DNA from: Alphaproteobacteria bacterium
Lineage (GTDB): Bacteria > Pseudomonadota > Alphaproteobacteria > UBA9219
Length of the DNA: 64,000 nt
NCBI GenBank assembly: GCA_041908065.1
Contig: JAYRGC010000039.1
Span: 2,481-66,480 of the forward strand
Reading direction: 5' to 3'
The translations under genes and the position numbers were made by a program. Below the pieces are notes generated by a model. The model made no database searches, was not told where the DNA came from, and saw only the letters and a list, made by a program, of their open reading frames with translations. Shown one piece after another: positions 4,748-63,130 of the stretch; position 1 is the stretch's first letter; the number at the start of each line of letters is the position of its first letter.

Positions 4748-7393
4748 ATGGGTTATAAAGGCCAAATGCATATTGGAATAGATCTTGGAACTTCCAACAG
4801 CGTTATCGCTGGGATAGTCGACGGAGAGGCGAGGGTATTTCATCCCGCCGACGGCGGCGAGGTTTTGCCTTCGGTCATATATATCGACAAGCGCGGTCAT
4901 CGCCTTTATGGGCGCAGGGCGCACGATCAGGCTTTGGTGTCGCCGGAAAACGTGGCCTCGGGCTTCAAGCGTCTGATGGGCACGTCGACGCCGATAACGG
5001 TCAAGGGGGCGGAGGTCACTCTTACGCCGGAGGAGTGTTCGGCGGAGATAATTCGCCAGCTTTTGGGGCAAGTGACTACTGAAACCGGCGAGGAGAATTT
5101 CGACGGCGCGATTATAACCATTCCCGCCGCCTTCAATCAGATGCAGTCCGAGGCCACTTTGCGCGCCGCTCGCATGGCCGGATTGGAGCGCGTTGATTTG
5201 ATACAGGAGCCGATCGCGGCGGCTTTGGCCGCGATGGCGGGGGCTAAACGATCTGGGCAGTTCCTTATATACGATTTAGGCGGCGGAACGTTCGACGTGG
5301 CTTTGGCTCAGGCGATAGAGGGCAACGTCAGCATTGTGGCGCACCAAGGCATCAATATGCTGGGTGGACGCGATTTCGATCGCATGATAGTGAACGAGAT
5401 TGTCCGTCCGTGGCTTGTCGCCAATTTCGATTTGCCCGACAACTTCCAGCGCGATCCGCAATATGCGCGGCTTATCCGCATCGCCCAGCTGGCCGCCGAG
5501 AAAGCCAAGATAGACCTTTCCTCGCTGGAGGAGGCCTCGATATTCGCCTCCGACGACGAAGTTCGCTTGATGGATCAAAACGAGAGCGAGATATTCCTCG
5601 ACGCGCCTATAACCCGCGCCCAGTTTGAAGAGATAATCCGCGAGCCGGTGATGCACACCATAGATATGGTGCGAAAGCTGTTGGAGAGCAACAATTACAG
5701 CAACGACGACATCGACCGCATAGTCTTCATCGGCGGTCCCAGCCGCATTCCGATGGTGCGTGAGATGGTGTCGGAGGAATTGGGCATCGCTCCGGATCTT
5801 CGCACCGATCCCATGACGGCGGTGGCTATGGGAGCCGCTCATTATTGCGAGGGGCGGGAGTGGGACAAGGCCAAGGTTAAAGATTTCAAACCGGCGGCGT
5901 CGCCCGCCGCTGTAGGCGGCGGCAGTTCGCCCAAACCCAAGCACGCTTCGGTGTCGGTTCCTTATCAGGCCACGGCGGAGGTCAAGCCTGCGGCCAAGAC
6001 GGGGGCGGCGGCAGCGGCGGGGACAGCGGGTTTCGGGGTCACCTTCGATTACGATCGACGCACCACGGCGGAAAAAACCGTGCTGGCTTTGCATATAACC
6101 GGAAAGGCTAAGGACGATAATCAGGTTCGCATTTTCGCAGACGGTTGGGATTCCGGAGTGTTGCCTTTGGTGGACGGATTGACCGTGGTGGTTCCTTTAC
6201 GTTCCATGGGCGAAAACCGTTTTCGTTCGCAGGTATTGGACGCCTCCGGCAAGCCTATCGACGGATACGACGGCGACATAACAGTGACGCGAGTGGTGGC
6301 CATGGTCGGCAACATTCCCGCCGCCCAAACCATCGCCGTCAAGGTTTTGGAAAACCCCCATTCCCGCGAAAACGCCTTGATGACTTTGGTGGCCAAGGGC
6401 TCGCCTTTGCCTGCCGAAGGCCACGTCCGTTTCACCAGCGGACGTACGCTGCGATCCGGCGGCGCGGGGTATGTCGGCGTCGAGTTGTTTCAGGTCGAGT
6501 TTCCCGAGCGCGTGGATTTGAATCTGTGCATCGGCATGTTCAGGATAGACGGATACGATCTGCCGTCCGGAGCCGAGATAAAGGCCGGAGATCCTATATC
6601 GTTCGATTGGAACATGAGCGACGGCGGCATACTTCAGGCTACCGTCACGTTGCCCAAGATCGGATTGGAATTGCGCGCTCCTCGTTTTTACGCGCCGCAA
6701 TCGGGACAGGTGTCGTTCAGCGGCGAGGAAGGCAACGCCTTCGCTTCCTCGGTTCTTGATCGCGGCGACGAGGAATGGGGGGATCTGGCGGCGGCTTTGG
6801 GGCCGGACGGCGGGCCGGAAGCGCAGATGCTTCACTCCAGATTGCTGGAGCAGCGCGACGTGTTGAGCGAAGCAGCCGGAGACGCAGAAACCGTGCGCCG
6901 CGTTGTCGAGGAAGCCCGCTTCGTGCGGCAGGACATAGCGCGGCTGGGGCGCAAGCACATAGTTCGCACGTTGCAGCGGCGGTTGGGCAAATTGGTCGCG
7001 GTGTTCAACCGCGTCGCCCGTTCTTCCGCCGAGCAGGAGGAGGAGGCGAGGTTCGAGGAGCTTGAAGGCGCGGTGCAGAGGATAATCGACGACGGCGACG
7101 CCGCCGCTTGCGACGACGCGGCGATTTATCTCAGCGAAATGCGGAATCTGTTCTTCGGCGTGGTATGGCGCGACGACGACTATATCGCCACTTGGTTCAA
7201 ACGCCTGTGCGGCGAGCCGTATTTGTTCACCGACAAGGAAGTTTTCGCTGCCATGGTCGAAGAGGGCGAAGCCTTGCTGGCCAAAGGCGATCGCCCCGCC
7301 ATGCGGGATCTAGTCGCCAGAATGCTGGACGCTCGCATAGCTCTGGGAGTAAACGATATGGCCGGAGAGTTGGCCACCATAGTGAAGGCGTGA
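4748..7393 (+). CDS. atypical long Hsp70-family ATPase (non-DnaK paralog, HscC/YegD-like NBD plus divergent SBD and long helical C-terminal extension)
   Basis: The actin-like ATPase motifs are present: IGIDLGTSNSV (phosphate 1), IYDLGGGTFDVAL (phosphate 2) and the adenosine motif VFIGGPSRIPMV. A beta-sandwich SBD-like region is recognisable (ISFDWNMSDGGILQATVTL). The total of 881 aa is much longer than DnaK. The probable true start is 4766 (MHIGIDLG) with AAGG upstream. Confidence 0.8.
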   Translation: MGYKGQMHIGIDLGTSNSVIAGIVDGEARVFHPADGGEVLPSVIYIDKRGHRLYGRRAHDQALVSPENVASGFKRLMGTSTPITVKGAEVTLTPEECSAEIIRQLLGQVTTETGEENFDGAIITIPAAFNQMQSEATLRAARMAGLERVDLIQEPIAAALAAMAGAKRSGQFLIYDLGGGTFDVALAQAIEGNVSIVAHQGINMLGGRDFDRMIVNEIVRPWLVANFDLPDNFQRDPQYARLIRIAQLAAEKAKIDLSSLEEASIFASDDEVRLMDQNESEIFLDAPITRAQFEEIIREPVMHTIDMVRKLLESNNYSNDDIDRIVFIGGPSRIPMVREMVSEELGIAPDLRTDPMTAVAMGAAHYCEGREWDKAKVKDFKPAASPAAVGGGSSPKPKHASVSVPYQATAEVKPAAKTGAAAAAGTAGFGVTFDYDRRTTAEKTVLALHITGKAKDDNQVRIFADGWDSGVLPLVDGLTVVVPLRSMGENRFRSQVLDASGKPIDGYDGDITVTRVVAMVGNIPAAQTIAVKVLENPHSRENALMTLVAKGSPLPAEGHVRFTSGRTLRSGGAGYVGVELFQVEFPERVDLNLCIGMFRIDGYDLPSGAEIKAGDPISFDWNMSDGGILQATVTLPKIGLELRAPRFYAPQSGQVSFSGEEGNAFASSVLDRGDEEWGDLAAALGPDGGPEAQMLHSRLLEQRDVLSEAAGDAETVRRVVEEARFVRQDIARLGRKHIVRTLQRRLGKLVAVFNRVARSSAEQEEEARFEELEGAVQRIIDDGDAAACDDAAIYLSEMRNLFFGVVWRDDDYIATWFKRLCGEPYLFTDKEVFAAMVEEGEALLAKGDRPAMRDLVARMLDARIALGVNDMAGELATIVKA

Positions 7394-10984: not shown

Positions 10985-11713
10985 CTATCCAACGAAATGA
11001 TGCGGCTCGCGCCGGAACAGCATGGCGTAGGTTTCGCGTTCGTATTCCATGCCGTGCATGGTGACTGGCTTATTGTGCTTCACTTCGCGCCATAAGTCGA
11101 GTTCCGGCGCGAAAAAATCCAATATCCGCCTGCGGGTGAAGAGTATGGACGCTATTCCGTTGACGGGATCCAGCACCACTTCTTCTCCGGATTCCGGATC
11201 CTGATCGTTCGGGCGTTGGCGATAGCGGCCATAGTAACCGTCGCCGACGCTGGCGAAGGACAGCATATAGTGTCCGCGCGCCCCCAGAACGTTCAGAAGA
11301 TTCTGCTTGTAGGCGATTCGCAGTTCGAGCGGTGAGATGTGCTTGAAGCAAAAAGCGTCCACCACCAGATCCACGTCGTCGCGGCCTATCGGCCAAGGTT
11401 CGGTCACATCGTGAACCAGCTGGCGTATTTTTTCCTTAAGTCCGAATCGGGATGCCGCTTCGGCCAGCGACGAGATGGCGTTGGGGGTAAAGTCCATCGC
11501 CGTTACGCTCATTCCTTGCGAGGCGAGGTAAAGCGAATTGCGCCCTTTGCCGCAACCGACGTCGACAGCGGTTTGCAATCTGGCCTTGTGGTTTTTCAGT
11601 TCCTCGACAGCCCACACGACCGAGCCTGAAGGCGTGGCGCGGACGGAAGACGGGATACCGCCCGCTTCGTATTCTTCGTTCCAAAGTTCCGACGGACTGC
11701 GGTGTTCGGACAT
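10985..11713 (-). CDS. class I SAM-dependent methyltransferase, TehB-like
   Basis: VDVGCGKGRNSLYLASQGMSVTAMDF resembles the TehB SAM-binding motif LDLGCGNGRNSLYLA. The start was chosen at MSEHRS. Confidence 0.7.
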   Translation of the reverse strand: MSEHRSPSELWNEEYEAGGIPSSVRATPSGSVVWAVEELKNHKARLQTAVDVGCGKGRNSLYLASQGMSVTAMDFTPNAISSLAEAASRFGLKEKIRQLVHDVTEPWPIGRDDVDLVVDAFCFKHISPLELRIAYKQNLLNVLGARGHYMLSFASVGDGYYGRYRQRPNDQDPESGEEVVLDPVNGIASILFTRRRILDFFAPELDLWREVKHNKPVTMHGMEYERETYAMLFRREPHHFVG

Positions 11714-11799
11714 GACGGCCTCCGTTGCGCCTATTTTATACCAAGATGGAGCAACGAACCAAGCGCAACGCCTATGGTTTTGCGTAAGAGCGAAAAAGG

Positions 11800-14573: not shown

Positions 14574-14690
14574 CCGTCATTGCGAGCGGCCTTTTTCAGG
14601 CCGCGAAGCAATCCATGGTCACTGGCATAATGGCACTGGATTGCTTCGCCGCCAAGGGGCGGCTCGCAATGACGGCTTTTGGTCGTCTAT
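14574..14690. repeat. family-A nested palindromic repeat, copy A1
   Basis: gtcattgcgagcggcc...gcgaagcaatcca / tggattgcttcgccgccaaggggcggctcgcaatgac inverted arms. Lies between the nuoN 3' end and birA. Confidence 0.85.
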
Positions 14691-14728
14691 CTCACAACTA
14701 ATGGAAATTATTTGGAATAACCATTAAG

Positions 14729-16201
14729 TCAAAGCGCGGCCAAACTTTGCGCCGCCGCCAACGCCCGATCCAGCAGCGGAGCCGGAGCCGCCACCAGCAG
14801 CAGCGCGGCGCAGGCCGCGACAGCCACCCCGAACCGCAGGGACTTTTCCGGCACGCCGTCTATCGCCTTAGCGTCCGCCGCCGCCTCGTCGAAGTACATC
14901 GCCTTGACGACCCGCAAATAGTAGAAGGCGGCGACCACGCTGGCCAAAACGCCGATGACGGCCAAAGGCAGCATTCCGGCCTTCACGGCGGACAGGAAAA
15001 CGAAATACTTGCCGAAGAATCCGGCCATGGGCGGCACTCCGGCCAGCGAGAACATGAACACCGCCATCGCCAAGGCAAGAGCTGGATGCGAACGCGACAG
15101 TCCGGCCACGTCTTGTATTTTTTCCACCTCGTTGCCGTCGCGGCGCAGGCACAAGATGACCGCGAAAGCTCCAAGCGTATTGACGGCGTAGATCGCCATA
15201 TACGTTAACGTCGCTTGGATGCCCATGCTTCCGCCCGCAGCCAAGCCTACCAACGCCGCGCCCACGTTGGCGATGGAGCTGTAGGCCATCAGGCGGCGCA
15301 GGTTGGTTTGCATCAATCCTCCCAGCCCGCCGACCAGCATGGAAGCCACGGCCACGAAGGCGATTATCTGCGTCCACTGGTGCGATAGCCCGCCCATGGG
15401 CTGTTCCAATATCCGCGCCAGCAAGGCCATGGCCGCCAGCTTGGGGGCGGCGGAGAAAAAGGCGGCGACGGACGCGGGCGCGCCTTGGTACACGTCGGGA
15501 GTCCACATATGGAAGGGGACGGCGGATACCTTGAATGCCAGAGCGGCGCAGATGAAAACCATGCCGAACAAGACGCCTAAAGGAACCGTTTCGCCCGATT
15601 GTTGGCGCAAGGATTCCGCGATGGCGGCGAAGCCGGTCGAACCGGCGTATCCGTAAAGCAAAGACGCGCCGTAAAGCAGCATCCCCGAGGCCACCGCCCC
15701 CAGCACGAAGTACTTCAATCCGGCCTCGCCTGATTTGGCGTCGTCGCGGCGGAAGGCGGCCATGACGTAAAGAGGCAGGCTTTGCAGCTCTATGCCCAGA
15801 TAAAGCGTCATCAAGTCGTTGGCCGATACCATGATCATCATGCCCAGCGCGGCGAAGACCGCCAATACGGGATATTCGGGGCAAGAAATCCCCGCCTTGG
15901 ACAGATATGGCGGCGAGATCAGTAACGCTAGCGCGGCGGACAGCAATATCGCTACTTTGGAAAAACGCGCGAAGGCGTCATTGATCAACATCCCGCCCCA
16001 TGCCGCGAAATGGTCGGACGCTTCGCCGCTCGCCGCCATGAAAGCCGCCGTCAGCAACGACAATATCGCCAGAAAGTTGACGGTTTTCACGCCGCCCTTG
16101 TTTCCGAAGGCGGAGGCCAAGAGAAGGACAAGCGCGGCCAAGGCCAGAAAAATCTCCGGCAAAGTGGCGGCTGAGGAGAGCGAGATTTCGGTTGGATTCA
16201 T
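14729..16201 (-). CDS. nuoN: NADH-quinone oxidoreductase subunit N
   Basis: Polytopic antiporter-like subunit with the typical NuoN C-terminal half. The start was chosen at MNPTEISL. Confidence 0.9.
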   Translation of the reverse strand: MNPTEISLSSAATLPEIFLALAALVLLLASAFGNKGGVKTVNFLAILSLLTAAFMAASGEASDHFAAWGGMLINDAFARFSKVAILLSAALALLISPPYLSKAGISCPEYPVLAVFAALGMMIMVSANDLMTLYLGIELQSLPLYVMAAFRRDDAKSGEAGLKYFVLGAVASGMLLYGASLLYGYAGSTGFAAIAESLRQQSGETVPLGVLFGMVFICAALAFKVSAVPFHMWTPDVYQGAPASVAAFFSAAPKLAAMALLARILEQPMGGLSHQWTQIIAFVAVASMLVGGLGGLMQTNLRRLMAYSSIANVGAALVGLAAGGSMGIQATLTYMAIYAVNTLGAFAVILCLRRDGNEVEKIQDVAGLSRSHPALALAMAVFMFSLAGVPPMAGFFGKYFVFLSAVKAGMLPLAVIGVLASVVAAFYYLRVVKAMYFDEAAADAKAIDGVPEKSLRFGVAVAACAALLLVAAPAPLLDRALAAAQSLAAL

Positions 16202-16314
16202 GGTGATGCCCACGGGACTGTTGGTGGAGCGATGAGGGAGGAAATATAATGTGGTGGACATTGGAGCACTTTTGTAGTGTTTCTGCCAGATGTTTCATCA
16301 AGGAGAGGCAGGAT

Positions 16315-17232
16315 ATGGGGTTTAGCGGACTGTTTGGAAAAATGGCGGATTTTATTGGGTGTTCGCCAGGAATCGTTATGATTGTTTCCGGTATGTTAGG
16401 ATTGGTTTTTTCCTACGGGCATCTATTGCCGGATTTCATGTTGGCCGTCCTTGTTGCTGGAATAATTTTCCTTTCCTGTTTTCGCATAAACGCGCCATTG
16501 CCACGCAACGCTTTATGGCGGATACCCGTTTTCTGCGTTCTGCGCTATGTGGCCTTTCCGCTGCTCATGTGGTGGTTGTGCATGCAGATCGCTCCAGAAT
16601 ACGCCGTTGGGATGCTCCTGCTTGGCCTTTGTCCTGCTGGTTCGTCTTCGGCTGGATTCGCATCGATTTATAACGGCAATGTGTCCACGGCCATTGCCAT
16701 CACTGTATTCAGCAGCATAGCTTGCGTTGCGTTTATGCCAGTGATGTTTGGGGTGTTTGCGGGATTGGAGATTTCTGTATCTCCATGGCAATTGCTGCGT
16801 ACTTTGTCGTTATGCGTTCTTTTGCCAGGAGCGCTTTATCTGATTTTGCGCAGCAATGCCGCCGTAGTTGGATATTTTACAAGGAATGGACAAAATATCA
16901 CTGTGCTTATGCTTGGCGCGATAGTGTTTTTAGCACTAGCAAGAAATCAAGATACGTTGATTCAAAATCACAATGAGCTGCTATTGCCTTTTTCTCTTAT
17001 CGTAGGTTTTTACATGATGGCGATGATTGCAGGTTTCGCCATAAAAACTTCCCTGATGGAACGCATATCGTATGGAATATGCTCAACCTTCAATAATAAT
17101 GCGCTAGGCATTGGCATCGCTGGAATATACTTCGATAGCAAGGTGGTCGTGTTTATGGTGATGACATCAATCGTATGGATGACATTGCCGATTATTGCTC
17201 GACCAGTAATCAAGAATTTGAGCACTTCATAA
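16315..17232 (+). CDS. BASS/SBF-like (bile acid:sodium symporter superfamily) membrane transporter
   Basis: About 9 TM helices. LGLCPAGSSSAGFASIYNGNVSTAIAIT resembles the CPGG...SNV signature of the SBF/Acr3 superfamily. Low GC. Antisense to the flanking nuo genes. The start is uncertain (16249 or 16315). Confidence 0.5.
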   Translation: MGFSGLFGKMADFIGCSPGIVMIVSGMLGLVFSYGHLLPDFMLAVLVAGIIFLSCFRINAPLPRNALWRIPVFCVLRYVAFPLLMWWLCMQIAPEYAVGMLLLGLCPAGSSSAGFASIYNGNVSTAIAITVFSSIACVAFMPVMFGVFAGLEISVSPWQLLRTLSLCVLLPGALYLILRSNAAVVGYFTRNGQNITVLMLGAIVFLALARNQDTLIQNHNELLLPFSLIVGFYMMAMIAGFAIKTSLMERISYGICSTFNNNALGIGIAGIYFDSKVVVFMVMTSIVWMTLPIIARPVIKNLSTS

Positions 17233-18705
17233 AGCTGCTGATATGAGGTGATATTGCGCCAACACTTGCTCGGTCGAGCGCGTGAACAGGTCGCTGAACG
17301 TGGCGGGGTGCAGCCCCATCCATAGAACCAGAACTGCCAACGGCGCGAACATAAGCCATTCGCGAGCGGAAAGATCCGGCATGGCCTTGACGTCGGCGTG
17401 GACGGCCTCGCCGAAGAACACGCGGCGGTAAAGCCACAGCATATAGGCCGCGCCCAACACCACGCCGGTGGCGGCGAGCGCGGCGATTATTTTATCGGCT
17501 TGCCACGCTCCGGCCATCGACAGAAACTCGCCCACAAAGCCGCTGGTGCCGGGCAACCCCACTGCGGCCAACGTGAACACCATGAACACGGCGGCATAGC
17601 GCGGCATTACCGAAGCCACTCCGCCGTAACGGGCGATCTCGCGGGTGTGCAGGCGGTCGTAGACCACGCCGACGGCCAGAAACAGCGCGGCGGAAACGAA
17701 CCCGTGCGACAGCATCACCAGCATCGCCCCGTCCAATCCTTGTTGGTTGCCGGAGAATATGCCAAGCGTGACATACCCCATGTGCGCCACCGAAGAATAG
17801 GCGATCAGCTTCTTCATGTCGGTTTGCGCCAGAGCGACCAGCGAGGCGTAAACGATGGCGATCACGCCCAGCCACAGCATCATCGGCGCGAAGGTTGCGC
17901 TGGCCTCGGGCAGCATTTGCAATGACACGCGGATGAACCCGTACCCGCCCATCTTCAGCAACACGCCCGCCAGTATGACCGATCCGGCGGTGGGAGCCTC
18001 GACGTGGGCGAATGGCAGCCATGTGTGGAACGGCCACATGGGGGTTTTGACGGCGAAGGAGGCGAAGAACGCCAACCACAGCCATACCGCCATTTCCTTG
18101 GGGAACTTGCCGCCCATCATCGCCGCCATGTCGGTCGTGCCGACGTGAAGCGACATGGCTATGATCGCCAGCAGCATCAAAACCGATCCTAGGAAGGTAT
18201 AAAGGAAAAATTTGTACGCCGCGTAAATCCGTCCGTTTCCGCCCCATACGCCGATGATAAGGAACATCGGGATCAAAACGCCCTCGAAGAAGACGTAGAA
18301 CAGCACGAAATCGAGCGCGGTGAACATGCCGATCATCATGGATTCCAGTATCAGCATGGCGGCCATGAAGTCGGGAAGGCGTTTTTTAATCCCGAATCCT
18401 GCCAAAACGCATATCGGGGTCAATAACGCCGACAGCATGACGAACCAGACCGATATTCCGTCCACGCCCTTGTGATAAACGACGTTGAAGGCGGGAATCC
18501 ATTGCGCCGTTTCCTCCAACTGGAAGCCGCTCTGCGAGGGATCGAATTGCCACAGCATTTCCAGCGACAAGGCGAAGACGGCCAAGGTCGTTCCCAGCGC
18601 GATTTGCCGCGCCGCGCCGTCGCGTCCCCGCGCCAACAGCATAATCATCCCCGCGCCGAGCAGGGGCAGGAAGGTGAGGAAACTTAGGATGGGAAAATCG
18701 GGCAT
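17227..18705 (-). CDS. nuoM: NADH-quinone oxidoreductase subunit M
   Basis: 492-aa antiporter-like subunit with conserved NuoM blocks. Confidence 0.9.
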   Translation of the reverse strand: MPDFPILSFLTFLPLLGAGMIMLLARGRDGAARQIALGTTLAVFALSLEMLWQFDPSQSGFQLEETAQWIPAFNVVYHKGVDGISVWFVMLSALLTPICVLAGFGIKKRLPDFMAAMLILESMMIGMFTALDFVLFYVFFEGVLIPMFLIIGVWGGNGRIYAAYKFFLYTFLGSVLMLLAIIAMSLHVGTTDMAAMMGGKFPKEMAVWLWLAFFASFAVKTPMWPFHTWLPFAHVEAPTAGSVILAGVLLKMGGYGFIRVSLQMLPEASATFAPMMLWLGVIAIVYASLVALAQTDMKKLIAYSSVAHMGYVTLGIFSGNQQGLDGAMLVMLSHGFVSAALFLAVGVVYDRLHTREIARYGGVASVMPRYAAVFMVFTLAAVGLPGTSGFVGEFLSMAGAWQADKIIAALAATGVVLGAAYMLWLYRRVFFGEAVHADVKAMPDLSAREWLMFAPLAVLVLWMGLHPATFSDLFTRSTEQVLAQYHLISAAL

Positions 18706-20679: not shown

Positions 20680-20994
20680 TTATCCCCTCATCTCGCTGAT
20701 GTCGTCCACCGCTATCGAACCCTTGCTGCGGAAATAGGCGACCAGTATCGCAAGGCCGATGGCGGCCTCCGCCGCCGCGACGGCCAACACCAAAAGCGCG
20801 AACACCTGTCCGGCCAGATTGTGCAGATAGGCCGAAAACGCCACGAAGTTCACGTTTACGGCCAGCAGCATGATCTCGATCGACATCAACAGGACGATGA
20901 CGTTCTTGCGGTTGATGAATATTCCCGCCACGCCGATGGCGAACAGAGCGGCGGCCAGAACCAGAAAGTGGGTGAGGGTTATGGCCATGGTCAT
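20680..20994 (-). CDS. nuoK: NADH-quinone oxidoreductase subunit K
   Basis: 104 aa with 3 TM helices; the [16 protein letters not shown] motif is typical NuoK. Confidence 0.9.
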
Positions 20995-21686
20995 ATTTCT
21001 ACCCCTTCGCCGATTTTGGGACGGCGGATTTCCATCACGTCCGCGGTTTTGATTGCCAACTGCGCCCCCACGTCCTGACGCTTGGCGTCCTTGCGTTGAC
21101 GCAAGGCCAATACTATCGCGCCCACCATGGCCACCAGCATTATAAGCCCGCAGAGCTGAAAGGGCAGGGCGTATTGAGTGTAAAGGACGTGGCCGATGGC
21201 GGTCGCATTGTCGGCGGCGTTTTCAGGAGAGCCGAACACTGCGGCTGCGGGCGAAGTCTTCCACGCCCACGTCGCGGCGATAAGCTGGGCGAGCATGACG
21301 ATCCCGACCAATCCGCCCAAGGGAAGGTATTCCATGAAGCCTTTTCGCATTTCGCGGGCGGTTATGTTCAGCATCATGACGACGAACAGGAACAAGACAG
21401 CCACCGCTCCGACGTAGACGATGATGAGCGTGAAGGCCAGAAATTCCGCGCCCATCAGCAGGAACAGCGCGGCGGCGTTGAAAAAGCACAGGATAAGGAA
21501 AAGCACCGAATGCACCGGATTGCGCGATGTCACCACCATCAACGCCGAGGCTATAAGCACGGCGGAGAAGGCGTAGAACACGCCTGCGCTCAACAGAGAG
21601 GGAAGATTTTGGAGGATAAAACTCAAAGCCGTTCTCCCTTTCAGGAAGAGGAAATCCCAGAATCCCATGTGGACTGCGAAGCGCAA
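20991..21686 (-). CDS. nuoJ: NADH-quinone oxidoreductase subunit J
   Basis: [44 protein letters not shown] is a NuoJ signature. The start is uncertain (21686 or 21668). Confidence 0.8.
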
Positions 21687-22264: not shown

Positions 22265-23146
22265 CTACTTCTGCGGCGGTGGAGAGGAATAGGGCGCCGC
22301 CACTCGCAAGGCGATGTCCGTGGACAGGTTGTGCTTTCGCAGGATGCTCTCAATCGTGCCATCAAACAACATTTCATTGGTCGCGGTGTTCAGCATGGCG
22401 GCCAGCCGCGTCTCTCCGGCGGGAACCGTAATACTATAAGAGGTAACCGTAAGCGGAGGAGATACAACTCTCCGTATCGTGTTAGGGCGCTTGGCCATGT
22501 ATTCAGCCCCGAACATGGCGTCGGTTATAAACGCATCCGCCTTGCCATAGGCGACTTGTTCTAGCATGTCGCTTAGCGGCGATGTCCCGGGCAATCCCAC
22601 GGTTCGGCTTTGCGGAAACAGCGTTTTGGCGAGATTACCGCTTAGTGTGCCATCTATCGAAACGAAACTTTTGTCCTTAGCGTTCAACGCCCGCAACTTG
22701 TTGTCATAGACAGCAACCCCGTTTTTAACAAACACATAAAGCGGAGTATAGAATATGGGCTGCGTGTATTCGACGAACTTGCCTCTGGTCGCGTCGGGCA
22801 ATCCGCCGGAACATTCCAGATCGAATTTTCCGTAATTGAGGTCGGATAAGTATGTGGCGAAGTTAAGCTCCGATGTCCATTCGACCTTGAGATCGAGTTT
22901 CTTGCCCAAGGCATTTAGGTAATCATAGAACACCCCCGATATATCGCCGGTGTTCGGGTCTTTTGCGATTATCGGATTCCATACCGCATACCCGCACCGA
23001 ATCACGCCAGTCCGCATGATGCGCTCATAGGCCGTTTCGCGTTTTTCCGATGCGACAACGCCGCCGGACTCGTGACGCGCAAACCAGTAATGCGTCCCGA
23101 CGCTTGCCAGAACGGCGATGATGAGCATGGACAGGAGGTTTTTCAT
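22265..23146 (-). CDS. amino-acid ABC transporter substrate-binding protein (PBP2/family 3-like)
   Basis: Signal peptide and periplasmic-binding-protein-like organisation. Embedded between nuoH and nuoI on the same strand, with lower GC than the nuo genes. Confidence 0.6.
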
Positions 23147-23160
23147 GCCAATTCCCGCTG

Positions 23161-24288
23161 CTATCTAAACGCTACCACATACCCCGCCGTTATCACGACC
23201 CAAACCAGCGACAGGGGCAGGAAGAATTTCCAACCGATGCGCATAAGCTGGTCATAGCGATAGCGGGGCAGGGTGGCGCGTACCCATAAGAACACGAACA
23301 GGCAAAAGGCGATCTTCAGCGCGAGCCACACGAATCCGGGGATGAACGCCAGCGCGTCCAAAGGCGGCAGCCAGCCGCCGAGGAACAGGATGGAGGTCAT
23401 CGCGCTTATCAATATCATGTTGGCGTATTCGCCAAGGAAAAACAGCGCGAAGGCCATTGACGAGTATTCGGTGTTAAAGCCGCCCACCAGTTCCGACTCG
23501 CCTTCCGGCAGATCAAAGGGCAGGCGGTTGGTTTCCGCCAATGCCGACACGAAAAACACCAAAAACATCGGGAACAGCAGGGAAAACGCGAACCAGCCGT
23601 CCTTTTGCGCCTCCACTATCTTCGACAGGTTCATGGATCCGGCCAGCAACAGCACGGTTATCAGCACCAGCCCGATGGACACTTCGTAGGAGATCATTTG
23701 CGCCGCTGAGCGCAACCCGCCCAAGAAGGGGTATTTGGAATTGGACGCCCATCCGGCGACGATTATTCCGTACACGCCAAGCGAGGATATGGCGAAGATG
23801 TACAACACGCCAAGGTTGATGTCGGCCAGCACCGCTCCGGCGTCGAAGGGGATGACCGCCCACGACGACAATGCCAGAAAGAACGTCAACACCGGCGCAC
23901 CCAGAAACAGCGCGATGTCGGCTTGGCGGGGGAATATGGTTTCCTTGCCCATCAGCTTCACGCCGTCGGCCATCGGTTGCAGTAAACCGAAAGGTCCCAC
24001 GACATTTGGGCCGCGCCGCATCTGCATCGCCGCCATTACCTTGCGCTCGGCCAGAGTCAAATACGCCACGCAGCCGAGCAACACGCCGATTATCAGCGCG
24101 ATCTTGAGCAGGATTATGGCGGCTGGCAGCAACGCCTGAACGGCTTCGTTCGACCAGAAACTATCCACGAGAACACCTTGAAAGCGGGCAAAAGCAGCAT
24201 GAACGCGGCTGTGAAGACGCTCGATACCCGGAGCGCGGACATCATCGCTCAAGAATCGGTAGGAAAAAAGCGAAAAGTTTTGCCTCAT
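23161..24288 (-). CDS. nuoH: NADH-quinone oxidoreductase subunit H
   Basis: [36 protein letters not shown] is a NuoH/ND1 signature. The N-terminus is about 30 aa longer than usual, so the start is uncertain. Confidence 0.85.
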
Positions 24289-29680: not shown

Positions 29681-29744
29681 AAGCCCTTACGCGAAACTGG
29701 AGGATAATTTGACTATCAAAAACATAAGCAACCACCGTCATTGC

Positions 29745-29870
29745 GAGCCGCCCCATGGCGGCGAAGCAATCCAGAGTCGCGGAGCAACGGCATTGGATTG
29801 CTTCGCCGCCAAGGGGCGGCTCGCAATGACAACCCTTGGCTGTAACTTAGCAATGACAGCTTTTGTTACA
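29745..29870. repeat. family-A nested palindromic repeat, copy A2
   Basis: cgtcattgcgagccgcccc...gcgaagcaatccagagtc // cattggattgcttcgccgccaaggggcggctcgcaatgac. Lies between ispH and hpnH. Confidence 0.85.
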
Positions 29871-36223: not shown

Positions 36224-36256
36224 CGGTCGCGGTCGCTGACGGTAGCGGCGCGTTGG

Positions 36257-36370
36257 TTGAGTAAGTTCCCTTCGACAGGCTCAGGGAACACAGAGTTTTG
36301 GATTCATGAACAAGTGGCGCGGCGGGGATTCCTCTCCCTCTGGGAGAGGGGGGATTGCGGAACCTTGGTC
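36257..36370. repeat. composite repeat (family C followed by family D/B-end modules)
   Basis: gttcccttcgacaggctcagggaac, then gagttttggattcatgaacaagtggcgcggcgg...cctctccctctgggagaggggggattgcggaaccttggtcgcgtg. A near-identical block is at 37797-38052. Confidence 0.8.
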
Positions 36371-36499
36371 GCGTGCATAACGCATAGCCGCTTGCCATTT
36401 TTTCCGTCCGAGATTAAGAATAGTTCAACTGCGCCGGATGGTCGGCGCGTTTGCGAATCGCCGCCTTGGAATCCATCGCGCCAAAAGGGGTTTTCTGCC

Positions 36500-37796: not shown

Positions 37797-38078
37797 GGCT
37801 CAGGGAACGCGAGTTTTGGATTTACGAACAGAAGGTGCGGCGGCGACTCCTCTCCCTCTGGGAGAGGATAGCGCGGCTTGGATTTTCGCTCCTTAGCGAA
37901 AATCCTTAGCCGCAGCTTGGTGAGGGTTCCCAAGTTGGGTTTACGAAAGAAACCCTCACCAAGGTATTGCCACGAATTTTCGAAGGCGAAAATTCGGGCA
38001 AACCTATCCTCTCCCAGAGGGAGAGGGGGGATCGCTGCGCCTTGGTCGCGTGAGTTCCCTTCGACAGGCTCAGGGAAC
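37797..38078. repeat. composite repeat block (families C-partial, D, B, C)
   Basis: Contains the 125-nt family-B element (ggtgagggttcccaagttgggtttacgaaagaaaccctcaccaaggtattgccacgaattttcgaaggcgaaaattcgggcaaacctatcctctcccagagggagagggggg), which is about 95% identical to 39966-40085. Confidence 0.85.
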
Positions 38079-38198
38079 ACGGGGTTTCGGGGAATGCTGG
38101 CAGGGCGTCGAGATTAGCGCGCGCGGTGAAAATCTCTGAAACAAAAAAAGGCGGGGGACTTTCATCCCCCGCCGTATCAATAGAACATGGGGATAGGA

Positions 38199-38852
38199 TT
38201 ACCTCATGTTATAAGTGAAAGAGATTGAATTAGTGGAAGTTCCATTGCAAGCGGCAACTATGGCCGGAATCGACGGTATTGCAGGGGGGGTTATTGTGAG
38301 CGCACCAGCGTTTATATGTACCCTTGTCAGTCCTACATTGCCTGACAATCCTGAAACTTTTTGCACAAGATCAGGACATGCGTTTTGCGGTACACCATAG
38401 AAAACCACACTGAAATTAGACGCGCTGCCTGTGCCTGCGGCATCTGCACCCGGAGGAGCTGCATCAGCAGCAGCACTAGCGGCCTGTCCTTGAACTATTC
38501 TTGTGCCGAAAGCAGGAGTTGCCCCGCCAATTCCAGCCCAAGGATTGATGATGGATACGACGTTAGCCCCATTCTTGCCCAACATATCCGCTGGCACGGC
38601 ATTAGTCTGGCCGAGTGCAACCGACCATGGTACGGCTGCGCCAAAGTCGGAAGATGTCGCATATAAAGCCCTGACACCTTGAACTACTGACAGCAATTGC
38701 TCGCTGGCACGAGATATGCGCAGATTGGTGTAAACCGACGCCGCCGCCACCCAGACTCCGCCGAGGATCAATCCCACGATTCCGAGCACTATGGCTGCTT
38801 CGGTCAAGGTGAAGCCGCGCATCGCGCGGGCTTTTTGCCGTTCTACGATCAT
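38199..38852 (-). CDS. type IV pilin-like protein (class III signal peptide; unusually large)
   Basis: Leader MIVERQKARAMRG followed by FTLTEAAIVLGIVGLILGGVWVAAA (prepilin peptidase site G|FTL(T)E plus hydrophobic helix). There is a C-terminal Cys...Cys pair (D-region-like). No pilus-assembly genes are nearby. Confidence 0.6.
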   Translation of the reverse strand: MIVERQKARAMRGFTLTEAAIVLGIVGLILGGVWVAAASVYTNLRISRASEQLLSVVQGVRALYATSSDFGAAVPWSVALGQTNAVPADMLGKNGANVVSIINPWAGIGGATPAFGTRIVQGQAASAAADAAPPGADAAGTGSASNFSVVFYGVPQNACPDLVQKVSGLSGNVGLTRVHINAGALTITPPAIPSIPAIVAACNGTSTNSISFTYNMR

Positions 38853-39093
38853 AGTAATTCTCCGTTCGCTGTTTGCAGTTGCGACATACGGCCACGATAA
38901 GGATACAGGCACCATGCCTGAACGGCCACACGCCAAAGACCATAGCACCATCATTACGGCTGCGACATCCTGAAAACGTCGCGGCCACCGGAATTTTCTA
39001 AGCACGCTAGCGGGAGAATGTTATAAAAACGTTAATGCAAAAACAAGGAGGTTCTTTTTCAAAACGGTTAGGTACGACCAAAGGGAAGGGGAT

Positions 39094-39235
39094 CGTCATT
39101 GCGAGCCGCCCCTTGGCGGTGAAGCAATCCAGAGTCGTTGTGCATGTGGCACGGGTTTGCTCCGCCGCCACGGGGCGGCTCGCAATGACAGCCTTTGGCT
39201 GTAGACTCAATATGACGGCTTTTGGCTGTGACTTT
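39094..39235. repeat. family-A nested palindromic repeat, copy A3
   Basis: Same arms as A1/A2 plus the ACAGCC-TTT-GGCTGT sub-modules. Confidence 0.85.
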
Positions 39236-39258: not shown

Positions 39259-39906
39259 ATGAAAGCCGCCGACATCGACGAGTTCTTTGCCCGCCTTGCC
39301 GCCGCGAGGCCGGAGCCGAAGATAGAGCTTGATTACGTCAATCCCTATACCCTGTTGGTGGCGGTGGTGCTGTCGGCCCAATCCACAGACGTCGGGGTGA
39401 ACAAGGCGACTGCTTCGCTGTTCCGCGAGGTTTCTTCTCCGGCGCAAATGGTGGCTTTGGGCGAGGAGAGGTTTAAGGAGCGCATAAAAACTATAGGACT
39501 GTTCAACGCCAAGGCGGCCAACATAATCGCCTTGTCCAAAATTTTAACTGAGAAGTTCGGCGGCGAGGTTCCTCGTTCCCGCGAGGAATTGCAGTCCTTG
39601 CCCGGGGTGGGACGCAAAAGCGCGAACGTCATTCTGAACACCGCGTTCAGGGAGCCGGTAATAGGGGTGGATACCCATATATTCCGCGTCGCCAACCGCA
39701 CCGGATTGGCGTTCGGCAAGACGCCGGAGGCAATCGAAAAGGAATTGATGAAGAAAATCCCCCCGCGTTGGCTGCTGAACGCGCATCATTGGCTGGTTTT
39801 GCATGGGCGATACACTTGCAAGGCCAAGAAACCGGATTGCGCCAATTGTCCGGTCAGCGCGTTATGCGAAAATAGGCAGGATTTGCGGACAGATAGCGGT
39901 CGCTGA
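39259..39906 (+). CDS. nth: endonuclease III
   Basis: HhH-GPD fold, catalytic Lys region and C-terminal [4Fe-4S] cluster loop CKAKKPDCANCPVSALC. Confidence 0.9.
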   Translation: MKAADIDEFFARLAAARPEPKIELDYVNPYTLLVAVVLSAQSTDVGVNKATASLFREVSSPAQMVALGEERFKERIKTIGLFNAKAANIIALSKILTEKFGGEVPRSREELQSLPGVGRKSANVILNTAFREPVIGVDTHIFRVANRTGLAFGKTPEAIEKELMKKIPPRWLLNAHHWLVLHGRYTCKAKKPDCANCPVSALCENRQDLRTDSGR

Positions 39907-39965
39907 GCTGCCACCGTGAGCCTGTCGAACGGCTGTCGAAGCGACTGCGATGGGATGGCCGCCGC

Positions 39966-40085
39966 TTGGTGAGGGTTATCAAGTTGGGTTTGAGAAAAGA
40001 ACCCTCACCAAGGTATTGCCACGAATTTTCGAAGGCGAAAATTCGGGCAAACCTATCCTCTCCCAGAGGGAGAGGGGGGATTGCT
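39966..40085. repeat. family-B three-hairpin repeat, second copy
   Basis: Near-identical to 37917-38040. Lies between nth and the T4CP-like gene. Confidence 0.85.
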
Positions 40086-40094
40086 GAACGTTGG

Positions 40095-42506
40095 TTACTT
40101 GCGATCCGACAAGCCTTTGTTCATTTTGTCGGCCATGGTTTCCAGCAATTTCATAACGCCGCCCGACAATCCGGTCTTCAGAACCGCGCCGCCGTAGTCC
40201 TTGTCTTCATCGCCGGATCTTTCAAGTTTGGATTCCAGAGCGGCTTCCATAAGGTCTTTGTCTTCGCTGAACGGCTTTGATTGCGCCGCAGTCACGCCGT
40301 TGCCGTTAGGATGGGCGTGGCCGTTTCCGTATTCGGCGCGGCTGATTTCGTCGATGGCGAACTCGTCGCCCGATTGCAGCAACGGAACGCCTTCGGGTTG
40401 CGATGCGGAAATCTGGGTCGGAAAACCGGATTCCGAGGCGGCTCGGGCAACCGAAGGCAAGGGCGGTTTGGCGGGAGAAGCCGCCGCCGCTTTGGCCGGT
40501 TGCGGCGCGGTCGTGGCGATATGAGCCAGAACCGAGGCCGTTTTATCCACGCCGCCGGATTTCGCCTCGGCCAGAGCGTCGGCAATCATGGAAATCTCCG
40601 CCGCCGTCGTGGCCGCCGGAGGAGACGCAGTGGCGGCCTTCCAATCCTTGTCCGACAGGCGGGTGGCCAATTCGGCCAAGGCGCGTTCTCTTGCCGTCGA
40701 GACGGTCGTTGTGGCCGGAACCGGCAGCATGTGGTGAACCCGCAAGGCCTTCACCTTGTCGGCCACGGCGTGGAACAGGCGGGCGCGGGAGATATACTCG
40801 GCGAACAGCATATGCACTTCGCCTTCGCGCTGGGTGCGAAGGTGGTCGTAGTCGGCGCGCACGCGCGATTGCGCCGCGCCCGCTCCGCGATCGTCGTAGA
40901 ACGGCGCGGTCATAAACAGGCTGGAGATGGTGTTGGTGGGGGAGGTCATGCCGCGATTTTCCATCACCCACGACGTGCCGACGTGTTCTTGGAAGAATTT
41001 TTTGGTTTCCGTCGGATCCTCGATTTTTCCAAATATCTTGAGGTTGCAGTTGCCGAGGATTGATTGCGCCTCTTGCTTGACGCGCTTTTCCATCGACGGC
41101 AAATCTTGCGCCGCGAATATCAGCGAGAAACCGAGCGAACGCGCTTGCGCCGCCATCACGGCCATGCCTTGGGCTGTGTAGTAGCCGACTTCGTCGAACA
41201 CCGTCATAAACGACGAGCTGGAGCGCGTTTGCTTGCTGCCGATTGCGCTTTCCCAGCTGCCCTCGACCGTGTTGCCCAGCGTCGCGCCCATCATGCCCTT
41301 GAGGCTAGCGGCGACGATTTTGCCTAAGTTGGCGGCTTCGTCGCCGGATTTTTCCAAGGCCGGAATCAGGCCGACCAGAATGCGGCGGTTCAGCACCACG
41401 TCCAAGACGTCGACGTCGGCCAGCTGCGCCTTGAAGATATAGCCGTATTCGTCGCCCAAAGACTGCAGCGAGCGGGTGAATTGCATCGACAGGTAGCCGT
41501 GTTGTTGCCGCGCCACCGACAAGTCGTACATCGGTTGTTCCGGCGAGGGGGGCTTTTCGTTGCCTTCGTCGTCGAAGGCCGCGTCGACGAAGCCCGGCAG
41601 GGTATTCAGGTATCCCCGCAGGGCGCGCAAAACGCGCTCGGGCAGGGTTTGGTCGCGGGAGAGGCGGATTATGGGCTTCAGCTCGATATATTCGCGCAAC
41701 ACGCCCACGTCCAACAATAATCCCTGCTTGTCGCGCTTGAACGTCAGCGCGGGCATCAACGCGCCCATCAGCGCGACGGCGCGTTCCTTCCACATGGCGT
41801 TGTCGCCGCCAGCGTCCGGCATCAGGCTGGTAACCATGTTCGTCAGATAAGATGCCGAGCCGTTGGCGAACGGGTTCATGGTGTTGGAGACGGCCCCGCT
41901 GTCGGAGTTGGCTGTCATGTAGTTGAGCACTAGCAGATCGTCATCGCGACCGAAACGACGGGCGATGGCGTACAGCGAAGCCCAAAGATCGGTGTCGGCC
42001 TTGCCATCGACGTAGACGAAGCCGGATCCCCATGCGAGGGAATTGACCACCAACGATTTCAGACCTTCGGTCTTTCCCGATCCAGTCGTGCCCAGAAACA
42101 GGATATGCGTGCGAGCGTCGCTATTGGTTAGCCACAATTCCCGCCCGTGATCGGGGTTCTCGGCGTCGTCGACTACGCCCAGATATAATATACCCTCCGA
42201 TTTTCCCGCGCCGGATTTTCCGGGCGGGGCGTTGTGTTTGTCCGGCAGTCCGGCGTTTTTGGGGAATTTGAACGGCATGACGAAGGGGCGTTTGCTCATC
42301 CATCTCGCGTAAAACAGCACGCAGAATAAGGCAATATCAGACCAAGCGTAGACTTCGGGCAAGACAATCAATGTGACGGACACGGCGGCCAACGCCGCCG
42401 CGAACATTTTTGTCTGTCCCCAGTAATCGGCGATACGCACCGACGCCGGCCGGACGTCGCGCATAAGATTGCGCCGAGCTATTGCGTGTTTGGGGAGAAT
42501 CGTCAT
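40095..42506 (-). CDS. type IV secretion coupling protein (T4CP; TraD/VirD4/DotL-like) homolog, orphan
   Basis: Two N-terminal TM helices, Walker A HILFLGTTGSGKTEGL, a downstream VYVDGKADTDLW block, Walker B SSFMTVFDEVGYY, and a long low-complexity Ala/Pro-rich acidic C-terminal tail. Confidence 0.55.
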   Translation of the reverse strand: MTILPKHAIARRNLMRDVRPASVRIADYWGQTKMFAAALAAVSVTLIVLPEVYAWSDIALFCVLFYARWMSKRPFVMPFKFPKNAGLPDKHNAPPGKSGAGKSEGILYLGVVDDAENPDHGRELWLTNSDARTHILFLGTTGSGKTEGLKSLVVNSLAWGSGFVYVDGKADTDLWASLYAIARRFGRDDDLLVLNYMTANSDSGAVSNTMNPFANGSASYLTNMVTSLMPDAGGDNAMWKERAVALMGALMPALTFKRDKQGLLLDVGVLREYIELKPIIRLSRDQTLPERVLRALRGYLNTLPGFVDAAFDDEGNEKPPSPEQPMYDLSVARQQHGYLSMQFTRSLQSLGDEYGYIFKAQLADVDVLDVVLNRRILVGLIPALEKSGDEAANLGKIVAASLKGMMGATLGNTVEGSWESAIGSKQTRSSSSFMTVFDEVGYYTAQGMAVMAAQARSLGFSLIFAAQDLPSMEKRVKQEAQSILGNCNLKIFGKIEDPTETKKFFQEHVGTSWVMENRGMTSPTNTISSLFMTAPFYDDRGAGAAQSRVRADYDHLRTQREGEVHMLFAEYISRARLFHAVADKVKALRVHHMLPVPATTTVSTARERALAELATRLSDKDWKAATASPPAATTAAEISMIADALAEAKSGGVDKTASVLAHIATTAPQPAKAAAASPAKPPLPSVARAASESGFPTQISASQPEGVPLLQSGDEFAIDEISRAEYGNGHAHPNGNGVTAAQSKPFSEDKDLMEAALESKLERSGDEDKDYGGAVLKTGLSGGVMKLLETMADKMNKGLSDRK

Positions 42507-42692
42507 TTTATTCGGCCATCACCAAATCAGGATTTCCCTTTGAGTTTTCCCCATATTCAAGCCGGAGTTTCTCCGACGGCTGGTTATATTACGGTTAATG
42601 CGGCAAAAATCCACGAAATTTAATGCGGAAACAAGGCAGTTGAAGGTATATTCTGCTATTTACGATGGCTATTGGTTAATATCGGAGGAAAA

Positions 42693-43268
42693 ATGCCGGA
42701 AAACCAGCCGCAAATGGGGCTTTGCGAAATCCTGCGCGCCGATCTTCGCCGGTTTGTTAACGGCGGATCTATCGGATGGTTGGCCATGGCGGCTTGCCTG
42801 TTCCTGCGAACGGGATTTTTGGCGGTGGCCATATACCGGCTGTCGGCGGCCTGCGCCAAGGGCGGAGCCTTGAGGAGAGCCTTGGCCAAGGTATTATGGC
42901 GGCTCAACGTGTTCATTAGCGGTTGCGACATAAGCCCGCGGGCGGTCATCGGGGCTGGTTTCAAAATGTCGCATCCGTGCGGGGTGGTTATCGGCCCAGC
43001 CGTCATCGGATCCAACGTGATGATGCTGCAAAACACTACCCTAGGGTTGCGCCGTTTCAGCGACGACGAGGACGATCCCAAGAATTATCCGGTTGTCGGC
43101 GATAACGTAATCATATGCGCCGGAGCGGTTTTGGCCGGAAGCGTGAAGGTGGGATCCAACGTGGTGATAGGAGCAAACGCGGTCGTCACATCGGACGTGC
43201 CGGACGACAGCACCGCCATAGGCGTTCCGGCGCGTCTGGTTCCCAGAGGACATGCCAAGCCGGTTTGA
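42693..43268 (+). CDS. hexapeptide-repeat acetyltransferase, serine O-acetyltransferase-like (short form)
   Basis: A left-handed beta-helix repeat region closely resembles the CysE C-terminus (IGAGFKMSHPCGVVIGPAVIGSNVMMLQNTTLG...VVGDNVIICAGAVLAGSVKVGSNVVIGANAVV...AIGVPARL). GGAGGA is the SD. Confidence 0.65.
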   Translation: MPENQPQMGLCEILRADLRRFVNGGSIGWLAMAACLFLRTGFLAVAIYRLSAACAKGGALRRALAKVLWRLNVFISGCDISPRAVIGAGFKMSHPCGVVIGPAVIGSNVMMLQNTTLGLRRFSDDEDDPKNYPVVGDNVIICAGAVLAGSVKVGSNVVIGANAVVTSDVPDDSTAIGVPARLVPRGHAKPV

Positions 43269-43304
43269 AAAAGCACCTACGGGCGGCAGGCCGGATTTGC
43301 AAAG

Positions 43305-43470
43305 TTATGGCCAAAGGCCGTCATTGCGAGCCGCCACTCTTTGGTTTGGACAGCGTTGAACGCTGTCGGGCGGCGAAGCAATCCAGTGCCGTTGCTCCAT
43401 AAGGTCTGGATTGCTTCGCCGCCAAGGGGCGGCTCGCAATGACGGCTTTTGGCTGTAGACCTTGCAATGG
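43305..43470. repeat. family-A nested palindromic repeat, copy A4 (with extra inner palindrome GGACAGCGTTGAACGCTGTC)
   Basis: Arms as A1-A3 plus an inserted hairpin that is also present in A8. Confidence 0.85.
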
Positions 43471-45679: not shown

Positions 45680-45878
45680 GTCGTCATTGCGAGCGGCCCC
45701 TTGGCGGCGAAGCAATCCAGATTCATAGCGCAACGGCACTGGATTGCTTCGCCGCCAAGGGGCGGCTCGCAATGACGCCCTTCCTCAGCCCTCCCCAAAA
45801 AACCAAAATGTAAATCGGTGGATTTTAACGGGGTAGAGACAGCCTTTGGCTGTGACTTCGTAATGACGCTAAACTTGG
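45680..45878. repeat. family-A nested palindromic repeat, copy A5 (core plus detached ACAGCC-TTT-GGCTGT module)
   Basis: Core at 45680-45780, and a module agcctttggctgtgacttcgtaatgacgctaaac at 45841-45875. The outer TIR-like cttcttgcataa is at 45667. Confidence 0.8.
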
Positions 45879-46966: not shown

Positions 46967-47057
46967 TCAAACCGCGAGGATTCCTATTCCTTTTGGCATT
47001 TGGTCGCCGCGATTGCAAGCGGTATCCATGGGAAAAATGCCGACATTATGGCGATCT

Positions 47058-47166
47058 GTCGTCATTGCGAGCGGCCTTCTTCTGGCCGCGAAGCAATCCA
47101 GTGCAGTTGCTCCATGGCTCTGGATTGCTTCGCGTCGCAAGGGCGACGCTCGCAATGACGCTAAAC
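47058..47166. repeat. family-A nested palindromic repeat, copy A6
   Basis: gtcattgcgagcggcc...gcgaagcaatcca // tggattgcttcgcgtcgcaagggcgacgctcgcaatgac. Confidence 0.85.
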
Positions 47167-52519: not shown

Positions 52520-52730
52520 CCTGTTACAGCCAAAGGCCGGTCATTGAGAGGTCTACGGCCAAAGGCCGTCATGCGAGGTCTACGGCCAAAGGCCGTCATT
52601 GCGAGCGTCGCCCTTGCGACGCGAAGCAATCCAGAGTCATAGAACAACGGCACTGGATTGCTTTGCGGCCTGAAGAAGGCCGCTCGCAATGACGGCCTTT
52701 GGCCGTAACAGGGTAGATGCCGGCCTTTGA
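52520..52730. repeat. family-A nested palindromic repeat, copy A7, with tandem GGCCAAAGGCCGTCAT sub-repeats
   Basis: Three tandem ggccaaaggccg(g)tcat(t/g) units precede the A core (gtcattgcgagcgtcgcccttgcgacgcgaagcaatccag...ctggattgctttgcggcc...ggccgctcgcaatgac). Confidence 0.85.
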
Positions 52731-62904: not shown

Positions 62905-63130
62905 GCCGTCATTTGCGAAGTAGACAGCCAAAGGCCGTATGCGAGCCGCCTCTTGGGTTTGGGCGTCATTGCGAGCCGCCACCCTTTGGTTTGGACAGCT
63001 TTGAACGCTGTCGGGCGGCGAAGCAATCCAGAGCCGTTGCTCTATGACTCTAGATTGCTTCGCCGCCAAGGGGCGGCTCGCAATGACAGCCTTTGGCTGT
63101 GACTTCGCGTGACAGCAGTTATGCAAGAAG
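62905..63130. repeat. family-A nested palindromic repeat, copy A8, with outer TIRs TTCTTGCATAA / TTATGCAAGAA
   Basis: Full-length element: outer TIR, gtcattgcgagccgcc arms (duplicated left arm), inner GGACAGCTTTGAACGCTGTC hairpin, and an ACAGCC-TTT-GGCTGT module. Confidence 0.85.

Follow-up and report, generated by a model that had tools for sequence, protein, structure and literature searches.

The gene considered here lies on the minus strand, at positions 40095-42506, of a 64,000-nucleotide stretch of alphaproteobacterial DNA (contig JAYRGC010000039.1; the whole stretch that was analysed is called the window below) and consists of an uninterrupted open reading frame (ORF) of 803 codons plus a stop, with an ATG start. 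A first-pass annotation, made without database searches, had described the product as an orphan type IV coupling protein, belonging either to a scattered secretion system or to some co-opted translocation function. Our analysis sharpens the assignment to DotL/IcmO, the coupling protein of type IVB secretion systems (T4BSS). We consider it probable, at roughly 70%, that the gene, icmO, encodes a coupling ATPase that works within a dispersed T4BSS and that it was relocated independently in this lineage. The gene and its product comprise the following features, all on the minus strand:

40095-42506: dotL/icmO-type type IVB coupling protein gene (ORF list, alignment with DotL, family profiles)
42297-42407: predicted N-terminal membrane anchor, with hydrophobic stretches at residues 34-50 and 58-70 (hydropathy)
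42069-42095: Walker A motif LGTTGSGKT, residues 138-146 (conservation of 90% or more among 117 family members)
41187-41201: Walker B motif VFDEV, residues 436-440 (likewise in columns with conservation of 90% or more among the 117 members)
40737-42209: nucleotide-binding plus all-alpha domain region, residues ~100-590 (very high in the family conservation profile)
40098-40736: C-terminal extension, residues 591-803, Ala/Ser/Pro-rich and mildly acidic (composition, family conservation profile)
40641-40691: conserved tail island RERAL..L..RL.D.DW, residues 606-622 (family conservation profile)
40359-40385: conserved tail island P.L...DEF, residues 708-716 (family conservation profile)
40107-40148: conserved tail island A.K.N.GL, at the extreme C-terminus (family conservation profile)

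The coupling-protein layout proposed in the first-pass annotation is borne out: the two hydrophobic stretches are followed by Walker A, a VDGKAD block (residues 166-171) and Walker B. Residues ~30-70 form the sole strong hydropathy peak of the protein (Kyte-Doolittle, 19-residue windows exceeding 1.4 only at 30-48), and the hydrophobic pair is consistent with a membrane hairpin. The low-complexity acidic tail of about 200 residues was likewise found, the portion past residue 590 measuring 213 aa with 18% Ala, 9% Ser, 7% Pro and a net charge of -6, and it keeps all three islands that are conserved across the family. The equivalent region of Legionella DotL is an adaptor-binding tail (PMC7251119, PMC7280309), and by analogy residues 591-803 may also bind adaptors.

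In a phmmer search of PDB sequences, the protein matched Legionella pneumophila IcmO/DotL (6SZ9 chain A, E=3.2e-128), with query residues 6-672 colinear with residues 8-664 of the chain. The best NCBIfam model, NF041447 TrbC_conju (374.6 bits, residues 25-589), did not reach its equivalog cutoff of 800; NCBIfam names it 'F-type conjugative transfer protein TrbC', which we take to be TrbC of IncI (I-type) plasmids, a homologue of DotL. Models for VirD4 and for F-type and SXT-type TraD scored far under their cutoffs (TIGR03743, 74.7 against 366; TIGR03754, 35.3 against 647; TIGR02759, 16.7 against 521), and the Pfam families TrwB_AAD_bind, T4SS-DNA_transf and TraG-D_C matched parts of the protein. 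The likeness to VirD4, TrwB and TraD lies in the common core of P-loop nucleoside triphosphatases, the matches being partial and low-scoring. More than 3,100 homologues were retrieved, 57-78% identical, many of which are labelled IcmO by JGI or NCBI. Because the alignment with DotL runs over the full length, the TrbC score stays below its cutoff and the VirD4, TraD and FtsK scores are lower, we assign the protein to DotL/IcmO, as a branch distinct from both Legionella DotL and plasmid TrbC. Sub-classification by profile search, which the first-pass annotation had recommended, accordingly leads to DotL/IcmO and not to VirD4, F-type TraD or FtsK.

Homology to DotL covers the anchor, the nucleotide-binding domain (NBD) and the all-alpha domain, Walker A and B are intact, and an N-terminal transmembrane anchor is predicted. 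Linkage to dotM/icmP and other dot/icm genes, a further hallmark of dotL, was not found within the 64-kb window; such linkage is not obligatory in this lineage, since dotM accompanies icmO at 52 of 72 decidable species-representative loci and is missing from the other 20. The resemblance to Legionella DotL comprises the colinear residues 6-672, the N-terminal anchor, the Walker A/B domain, a similar length (803 versus 783 aa) and a C-terminal extension of about 200 residues, and DotM, DotN, IcmB/DotO and DotG are encoded alongside dotL in relatives of the window gene, as in Legionella Dot/Icm. By contrast, the window gene comes from an alphaproteobacterial, Micavibrio-related lineage rather than from Legionellales, does not adjoin icmP/dotM, and encodes a tail that cannot be aligned past residue ~670, whereas its relatives carry a lineage-specific protein, X, between DotM and DotL. 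Homologues of IcmS, IcmW or LvgA were not seen, although no search aimed at them was made.

The system to which such a protein would belong is visible in the relatives. At six related loci, genes for a 997-aa protein, DotM, X, IcmO and a GT4 glycosyltransferase follow one another, X being 165-226 aa long at these loci. The DotM/IcmP of these loci matches NF033890 (E=1e-51), and the 997-aa protein is weakly TraC/VirB4-like and called IcmB by both NCBI and JGI; a PDB sequence search with the latter returned nothing useful. TrbI/DotG, a weak DotF, TraQ/DotE-like proteins and an IcmJ/DotN homologue (86.9 bits) are encoded farther upstream. The resulting order is that of Legionella, icmE-G-C-(D)-J-B and then icmP and icmO. 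Protein X (149-253 aa) is always located between DotM and DotL in the relatives (e.g., L006 9433-9930; L011 ~11274-11795) and consists of an N-terminal domain, one transmembrane helix and a conserved C-terminal GVPxSADDxL, the architecture of a lineage-specific small membrane protein. X had no family or PDB match and no tblastn counterpart in the window. X was rejected as a DotN analogue, since it lacks the Cys motif and the relatives have a separate IcmJ/DotN homologue.

We scanned one genome per species with one IcmO and one DotM peptide pattern, which confirmed 384 loci, and analysed the best 80 by score. The record titles include Micavibrio aeruginosavorus, Micavibrio sp. and many metagenome-assembled genomes (MAGs) filed as Rhodospirillaceae, Alphaproteobacteria or 'Bdellovibrionales'; two of the records are complete M. 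aeruginosavorus chromosomes (NZ_CP195303.1, L063, and CP066681.1, L075), and further loci are L060 and L077. The closest match to the window IcmO among the best 80 of the 384 loci is 84% identical. We conclude that a Dot/Icm-like T4BSS is, as far as sequence comparison can tell, chromosomal and vertically inherited in Micavibrio-like alphaproteobacteria. The genome paper on M. aeruginosavorus ARL-13 reported no evidence for a secretion system of type III or of type IV (PMC3189940). No paper pairing Micavibrio with Dot/Icm or T4BSS was found in the literature searched, in which the T4BSS of this group appears to be undescribed.

The best 80 of the 384 loci fall into graded arrangements:

8 loci: DotF/E/N together with DotO-DotM-X-DotL
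9 loci: DotO-DotM-X-DotL, with unrelated genes upstream
19 loci: DotM-X-DotL, DotO being absent over at least 3.5 kb upstream (Micavibrio clade)
20 loci: DotL, with no DotM in 2.5-9.7 kb upstream
remaining loci: cut by contig ends

Loci with DotM only fell outside these best 80, and IcmO and DotM loci were not paired by assembly. The ORF was uninterrupted in all 20 genes for DotL alone (687-864 codons). In a neighbour-joining tree of the nucleotide-binding region, about 16 of the 20 form one clade, the members of which share a fixed context of suf genes, pepN, PagL, LpxI, IcmO, SIMPL and SecF. Separation of dotL from the other T4BSS genes is thus a common, stable and inherited arrangement in the lineage, and largely an ordinary one. 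The coupling-protein part of the first-pass claim stands in sharper form, whereas 'orphan' overstates the case because a separate dotL is not unusual here.

Two cases indicate that, in parts of the group, single T4BSS genes lie dispersed among housekeeping genes. First, an isolated icmO (P0081, 86,114-88,546) on JAMFSS010000009.1 (321,306 nt) has neither DotO nor DotM within 10 kb, and an IcmB/DotO (P0304) is found on a 321,306-nt NCBI contig that is apparently P0081's own, the two having been matched by size and source and not by sequence; P0304 falls in an IcmB group without a close relative at a canonical locus, mirroring the isolated-icmO clade. Second, the DotM P0238, on a 165-kb contig, is a singleton that comes directly after gidA-gidB-parA-parB; the genes behind it are unrelated, and DotO, X and IcmO are all absent within 10 kb of it. 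No case of single-gene scattering is clearer than this DotM/IcmP gene (L093/L094, 10001-11239; JGI Ga0455670_0000627, ENA k141_1458956). Of the two readings offered in the first-pass annotation, that of a dispersed coupling protein is therefore supported by the 20 of 72 loci, P0304 and the singleton DotM, whereas for co-option no positive evidence was found. In Rickettsiales, genes of the type IVA system rvh (VirB/VirD4) lie at several places along the chromosome, amid housekeeping genes, and the coupling protein is encoded apart. The analogy with the window gene, which the first-pass annotation had drawn, extends to dispersal alone, rvh being of class IVA and the window gene of class IVB, and the degree of dispersal varies between the lineages of the latter.

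Two further arrangements were observed in relatives. The MAG I2_bin-123 contains two isolated icmO genes on two contigs (L017, CAIPYM010000022.1, and L050, CAIPYM010000001.1), which are sisters in the neighbour-joining tree and represent either a real duplication or a mixed bin. DotO P0245 (IcmB) and DotM P0147 share a 34,264-nt NCBI contig, from which no IcmO is present among the 120 best IcmO matches; this contig may be an 'empty site' in the L011 group, with DotO-DotM and without DotL.

In the window, the surroundings of icmO are as follows:

39259-39906, plus strand: nth, endonuclease III (TIGR01083, 251.6 bits against a cutoff of 211.7)
42672-43268, plus strand: hexapeptide acetyltransferase gene, CysE/EpsC-like (below curated cutoffs)
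42507-42671, minus strand: AT-rich intergenic region upstream of icmO, presumed promoter (41.8% GC against 57.9% for the window)
39958-40107: copy of a 150-nt repeat (family D4) where icmO ends, sharing 89% identity with 37909-38058
37909-38058: partner repeat copy, between pdxH and a pilin gene (repeat search and alignment)

The neighbours named in the first-pass annotation, nth and a serine acetyltransferase-like gene, were recovered, as was the repeat following the gene, which overlaps the stop codon and the final three codons of icmO, all three of them non-conserved. As to the AT-rich promoter proposed there, the composition was confirmed and the promoter was not: icmO would have a promoter of its own in 42507-42671, which stays presumptive because a sigma-70 consensus scan gave no minus-strand site upstream of the gene. 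By homology with Legionella, DotL would be anchored in the inner membrane via the N-terminal hairpin and hydrolyse ATP with the Walker A/B domain, its tail of ~210 residues docking DotN-type and other adaptors, which would bring substrates to a DotO/DotB-powered channel. In this genome, icmO would have been separated from dotO-dotM-X, its neighbours in the closest relatives. It lies between nth and the acetyltransferase gene, has a repeat at its 3' terminus and would be transcribed alone from the AT-rich region, and the remaining parts of the T4BSS machine would be expected at other places in the genome.

Several observations weigh against a working, dispersed system. First, the 64 kb yielded no T4BSS partner: when about 60 of the window's large ORFs were compared with Pfam or NCBIfam families, they proved to be ordinary chromosomal genes, and no match to a T4SS, relaxase or integrase family emerged, in agreement with the first-pass annotation. 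Since Pfam lacks models for many of the lineage's Dot/Icm proteins, the window was also searched by tblastn with the proteins encoded next to icmO at four related loci (DotF, TraQ/DotE-like, DotN, DotO, DotM, X and GT4); none of them matched at E <= 1e-3, and the sole match was that of icmO. Second, no DotM or DotO attributable to the window's genome was recognized among the NCBI-only proteins in the best 120 DotM and the best 120 DotO/IcmB matches. The candidates P0208 and P0189 belong to canonical loci and P0192 is located at a contig end; P0245/P0147, from the 34,264-nt contig, belong to the tight L011 group, of which the window IcmO is not a member, and P0268 is 95% identical to the DotO of L020. 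Third, the NBD phylogeny proposed in the first-pass annotation places the window gene and its nearest relative, P0003, among canonical T4BSS genomes and outside the large DotL-alone clade, so that the latter offers an analogy from an independent event. Since the two group with canonical genomes, relocation of the window icmO looks like an event of its own. Finally, P0304 and P0081 were linked by size and source alone, with no sequence read.

The second of these points counts for little because MAGs are incomplete and the matches considered were the best 120, yet it keeps alive two alternatives in which the gene has no Dot/Icm channel to serve. In the first, the T4BSS would have been lost from the lineage, leaving an icmO that is intact but functionless and not yet decayed, as the lack of partner genes in the window and of an attributable DotM/DotO would suggest. 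The incompleteness of MAGs accounts for the missing partners equally well, and in the gene itself neither decay nor a relaxation of constraint is apparent. Its ORF runs full length, every motif is present, and among the 271 columns that 117 family members conserve to at least 95%, it departs from the family at 3, which falls inside the interquartile range (family median 2, interquartile range 1-3, maximum 11). NBD identity to P0003 is 81%, and the N-terminus and the start of the tail are conserved as well; the gene has therefore probably been under long purifying selection. In addition, the other genes for DotL alone are intact in 20 of 20 cases. We thus regard a relic as unlikely.

In the second alternative, the protein would be a co-opted stand-alone ATPase working without a Dot/Icm channel, for example with a type IVb pilus. 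The gene is single, has its own upstream region and stands in a housekeeping context. Close to it lies a gene that the first-pass annotation had overlooked:

38199-38852, minus strand: PilS/bundlin-family type IVb prepilin gene, 1.1 kb downstream of icmO (Pfam; GFTLTE processing motif)
38150-38173: strong terminator-like hairpin of the pilin gene

The pilin ORF spans 38199-39005 (minus strand), with the true start probably at Met52 (38852), and its product is 33% identical (E=3e-29) to a pilin encoded 4.6 kb from the singleton DotM in L093. However, the pilin gene is a separate transcription unit with its own terminator and is deviant in GC content at third codon positions (GC3 0.47 versus 0.68-0.76 in its neighbours). 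An association of pilin with T4BSS genes was rejected: among ~95 loci, the window and L093/L094 alone have full-length homologues (the matches in L042 and L043 were short and N-terminal), and the proximity is therefore probably due to chance. Moreover, the window protein retains all the residues and tail islands that are conserved in T4BSS-linked members. To our knowledge, no co-opted DotL has been described, and we consider such a role improbable.

Transfer of DNA by the coupling protein of an I-type conjugative element, such as a remnant of an IncI-like plasmid or of an integrative and conjugative element, is less credible still and very improbable. The best NCBIfam model is that of a conjugative TrbC, the relatives encode a TraQ-like gene, and their DotM-X-DotL order parallels trbA-trbB-trbC, the gene order of IncI plasmids. 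However, the score remains far under the equivalog cutoff, and neither a relaxase nor an integrase or replication gene was found in the window or in the 10-kb flanks of relatives (no search specific to oriT was made). The gene is flanked by conserved housekeeping genes of the chromosome, and the clades of the phylogeny are deep and lineage-wide, so that, in contrast to IncI TrbC, the family of the window gene appears to be chromosomal and vertically inherited, with no plasmid or integrative-element context. Furthermore, icmO is not a recent import and its codon composition is native, because its GC3 of 0.75 falls within the range of neighbouring housekeeping genes (0.68-0.76). A DNA translocase of the FtsK/SpoIIIE type can be dismissed, since the weak Pfam FtsK_SpoIIIE match (PF01580) is confined to 26 residues at the P-loop (132-157) and, at 19.4 bits, lies below the gathering score of 24, whereas the alignment with DotL spans the full length.

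The repeat at the 3' end of icmO is part of a composite intergenic repeat with the palindrome CCTCTCCCTCTGGGAGAGG, three copies of which occur within 4 kb (36245-36404, shorter; 37811-38090; 39958-40130) and may represent rearrangement breakpoints; the copies at 37909-38058 and 39958-40107 flank the pair formed by the pilin gene and nth. The copy at 36330-36404 was rejected as a relic of the icmO 3' end, its similarity (72% to the last 35 nt, ~63% in the coding part) being too weak. A second palindromic family of ~95-115 nt, CGTCATTGCGAGC...GCGAAGCAATCCAG...CTGGATTGCTTCGC...GCTCGCAATGACG, has at least 8 copies in the 64 kb, all of them intergenic:

14575-14697, 29735-29854, 39090-39229, 43297-43467: copies of the second palindromic family
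45680-45800, 47046-47160, 52555-52708, 62961-63111: copies of the second palindromic family, continued

Genes recognized elsewhere in the window encode flagellar rod/ring proteins, lysS, nuo subunits, rpsB, tsf, ispH, an hpnH-like protein, ssb, degP, gpsA, pagL, pdxH, ispG, mreB, plsC, a P-type ATPase, RNase J, alaS, kdsA, pssA, psd and a class A penicillin-binding protein. The string of nuo genes (minus strand) is broken at 16249-17232 (plus strand) by a gene of the bile-acid/Na+ symporter family, flanked by Proton_antipo_M genes at 14729-16261 and 17227-18705 (probably nuoN and nuoM). A second break at 22265-23146 (minus strand) is formed by a gene for a family-3 solute-binding protein, between Oxidored_q3 (nuoJ-type, 20991-21686) and NADHdh (nuoH-type, 23161-24288) genes. 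An 881-aa protein is encoded at 4748-7393 (plus strand), with an Hsp70/actin-like ATPase domain at residues 9-368 and a C-terminal part of 500 residues without a Pfam match.

For the window gene itself, the result is mainly a correct annotation, and its isolation reflects the way in which this lineage arranges type IVB genes. The wider point, set against the ARL-13 genome paper, is the occurrence of a Dot/Icm-like system at 384 species-representative loci, including those on complete M. aeruginosavorus chromosomes. We tentatively suggest, at somewhat less than even odds, that the T4BSS of the Micavibrio group injects effectors into bacterial prey and not into eukaryotic hosts, the scattering of its genes being a tolerated, lineage-specific architecture. 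Loci with the cluster broken up to different degrees form a natural series, in which one could ask which of the T4BSS genes have to be transcribed together. A conserved effector-translocation machine would be a concrete candidate for how these epibiotic predators breach and drain their prey, one that is genetically testable in cultivable species.

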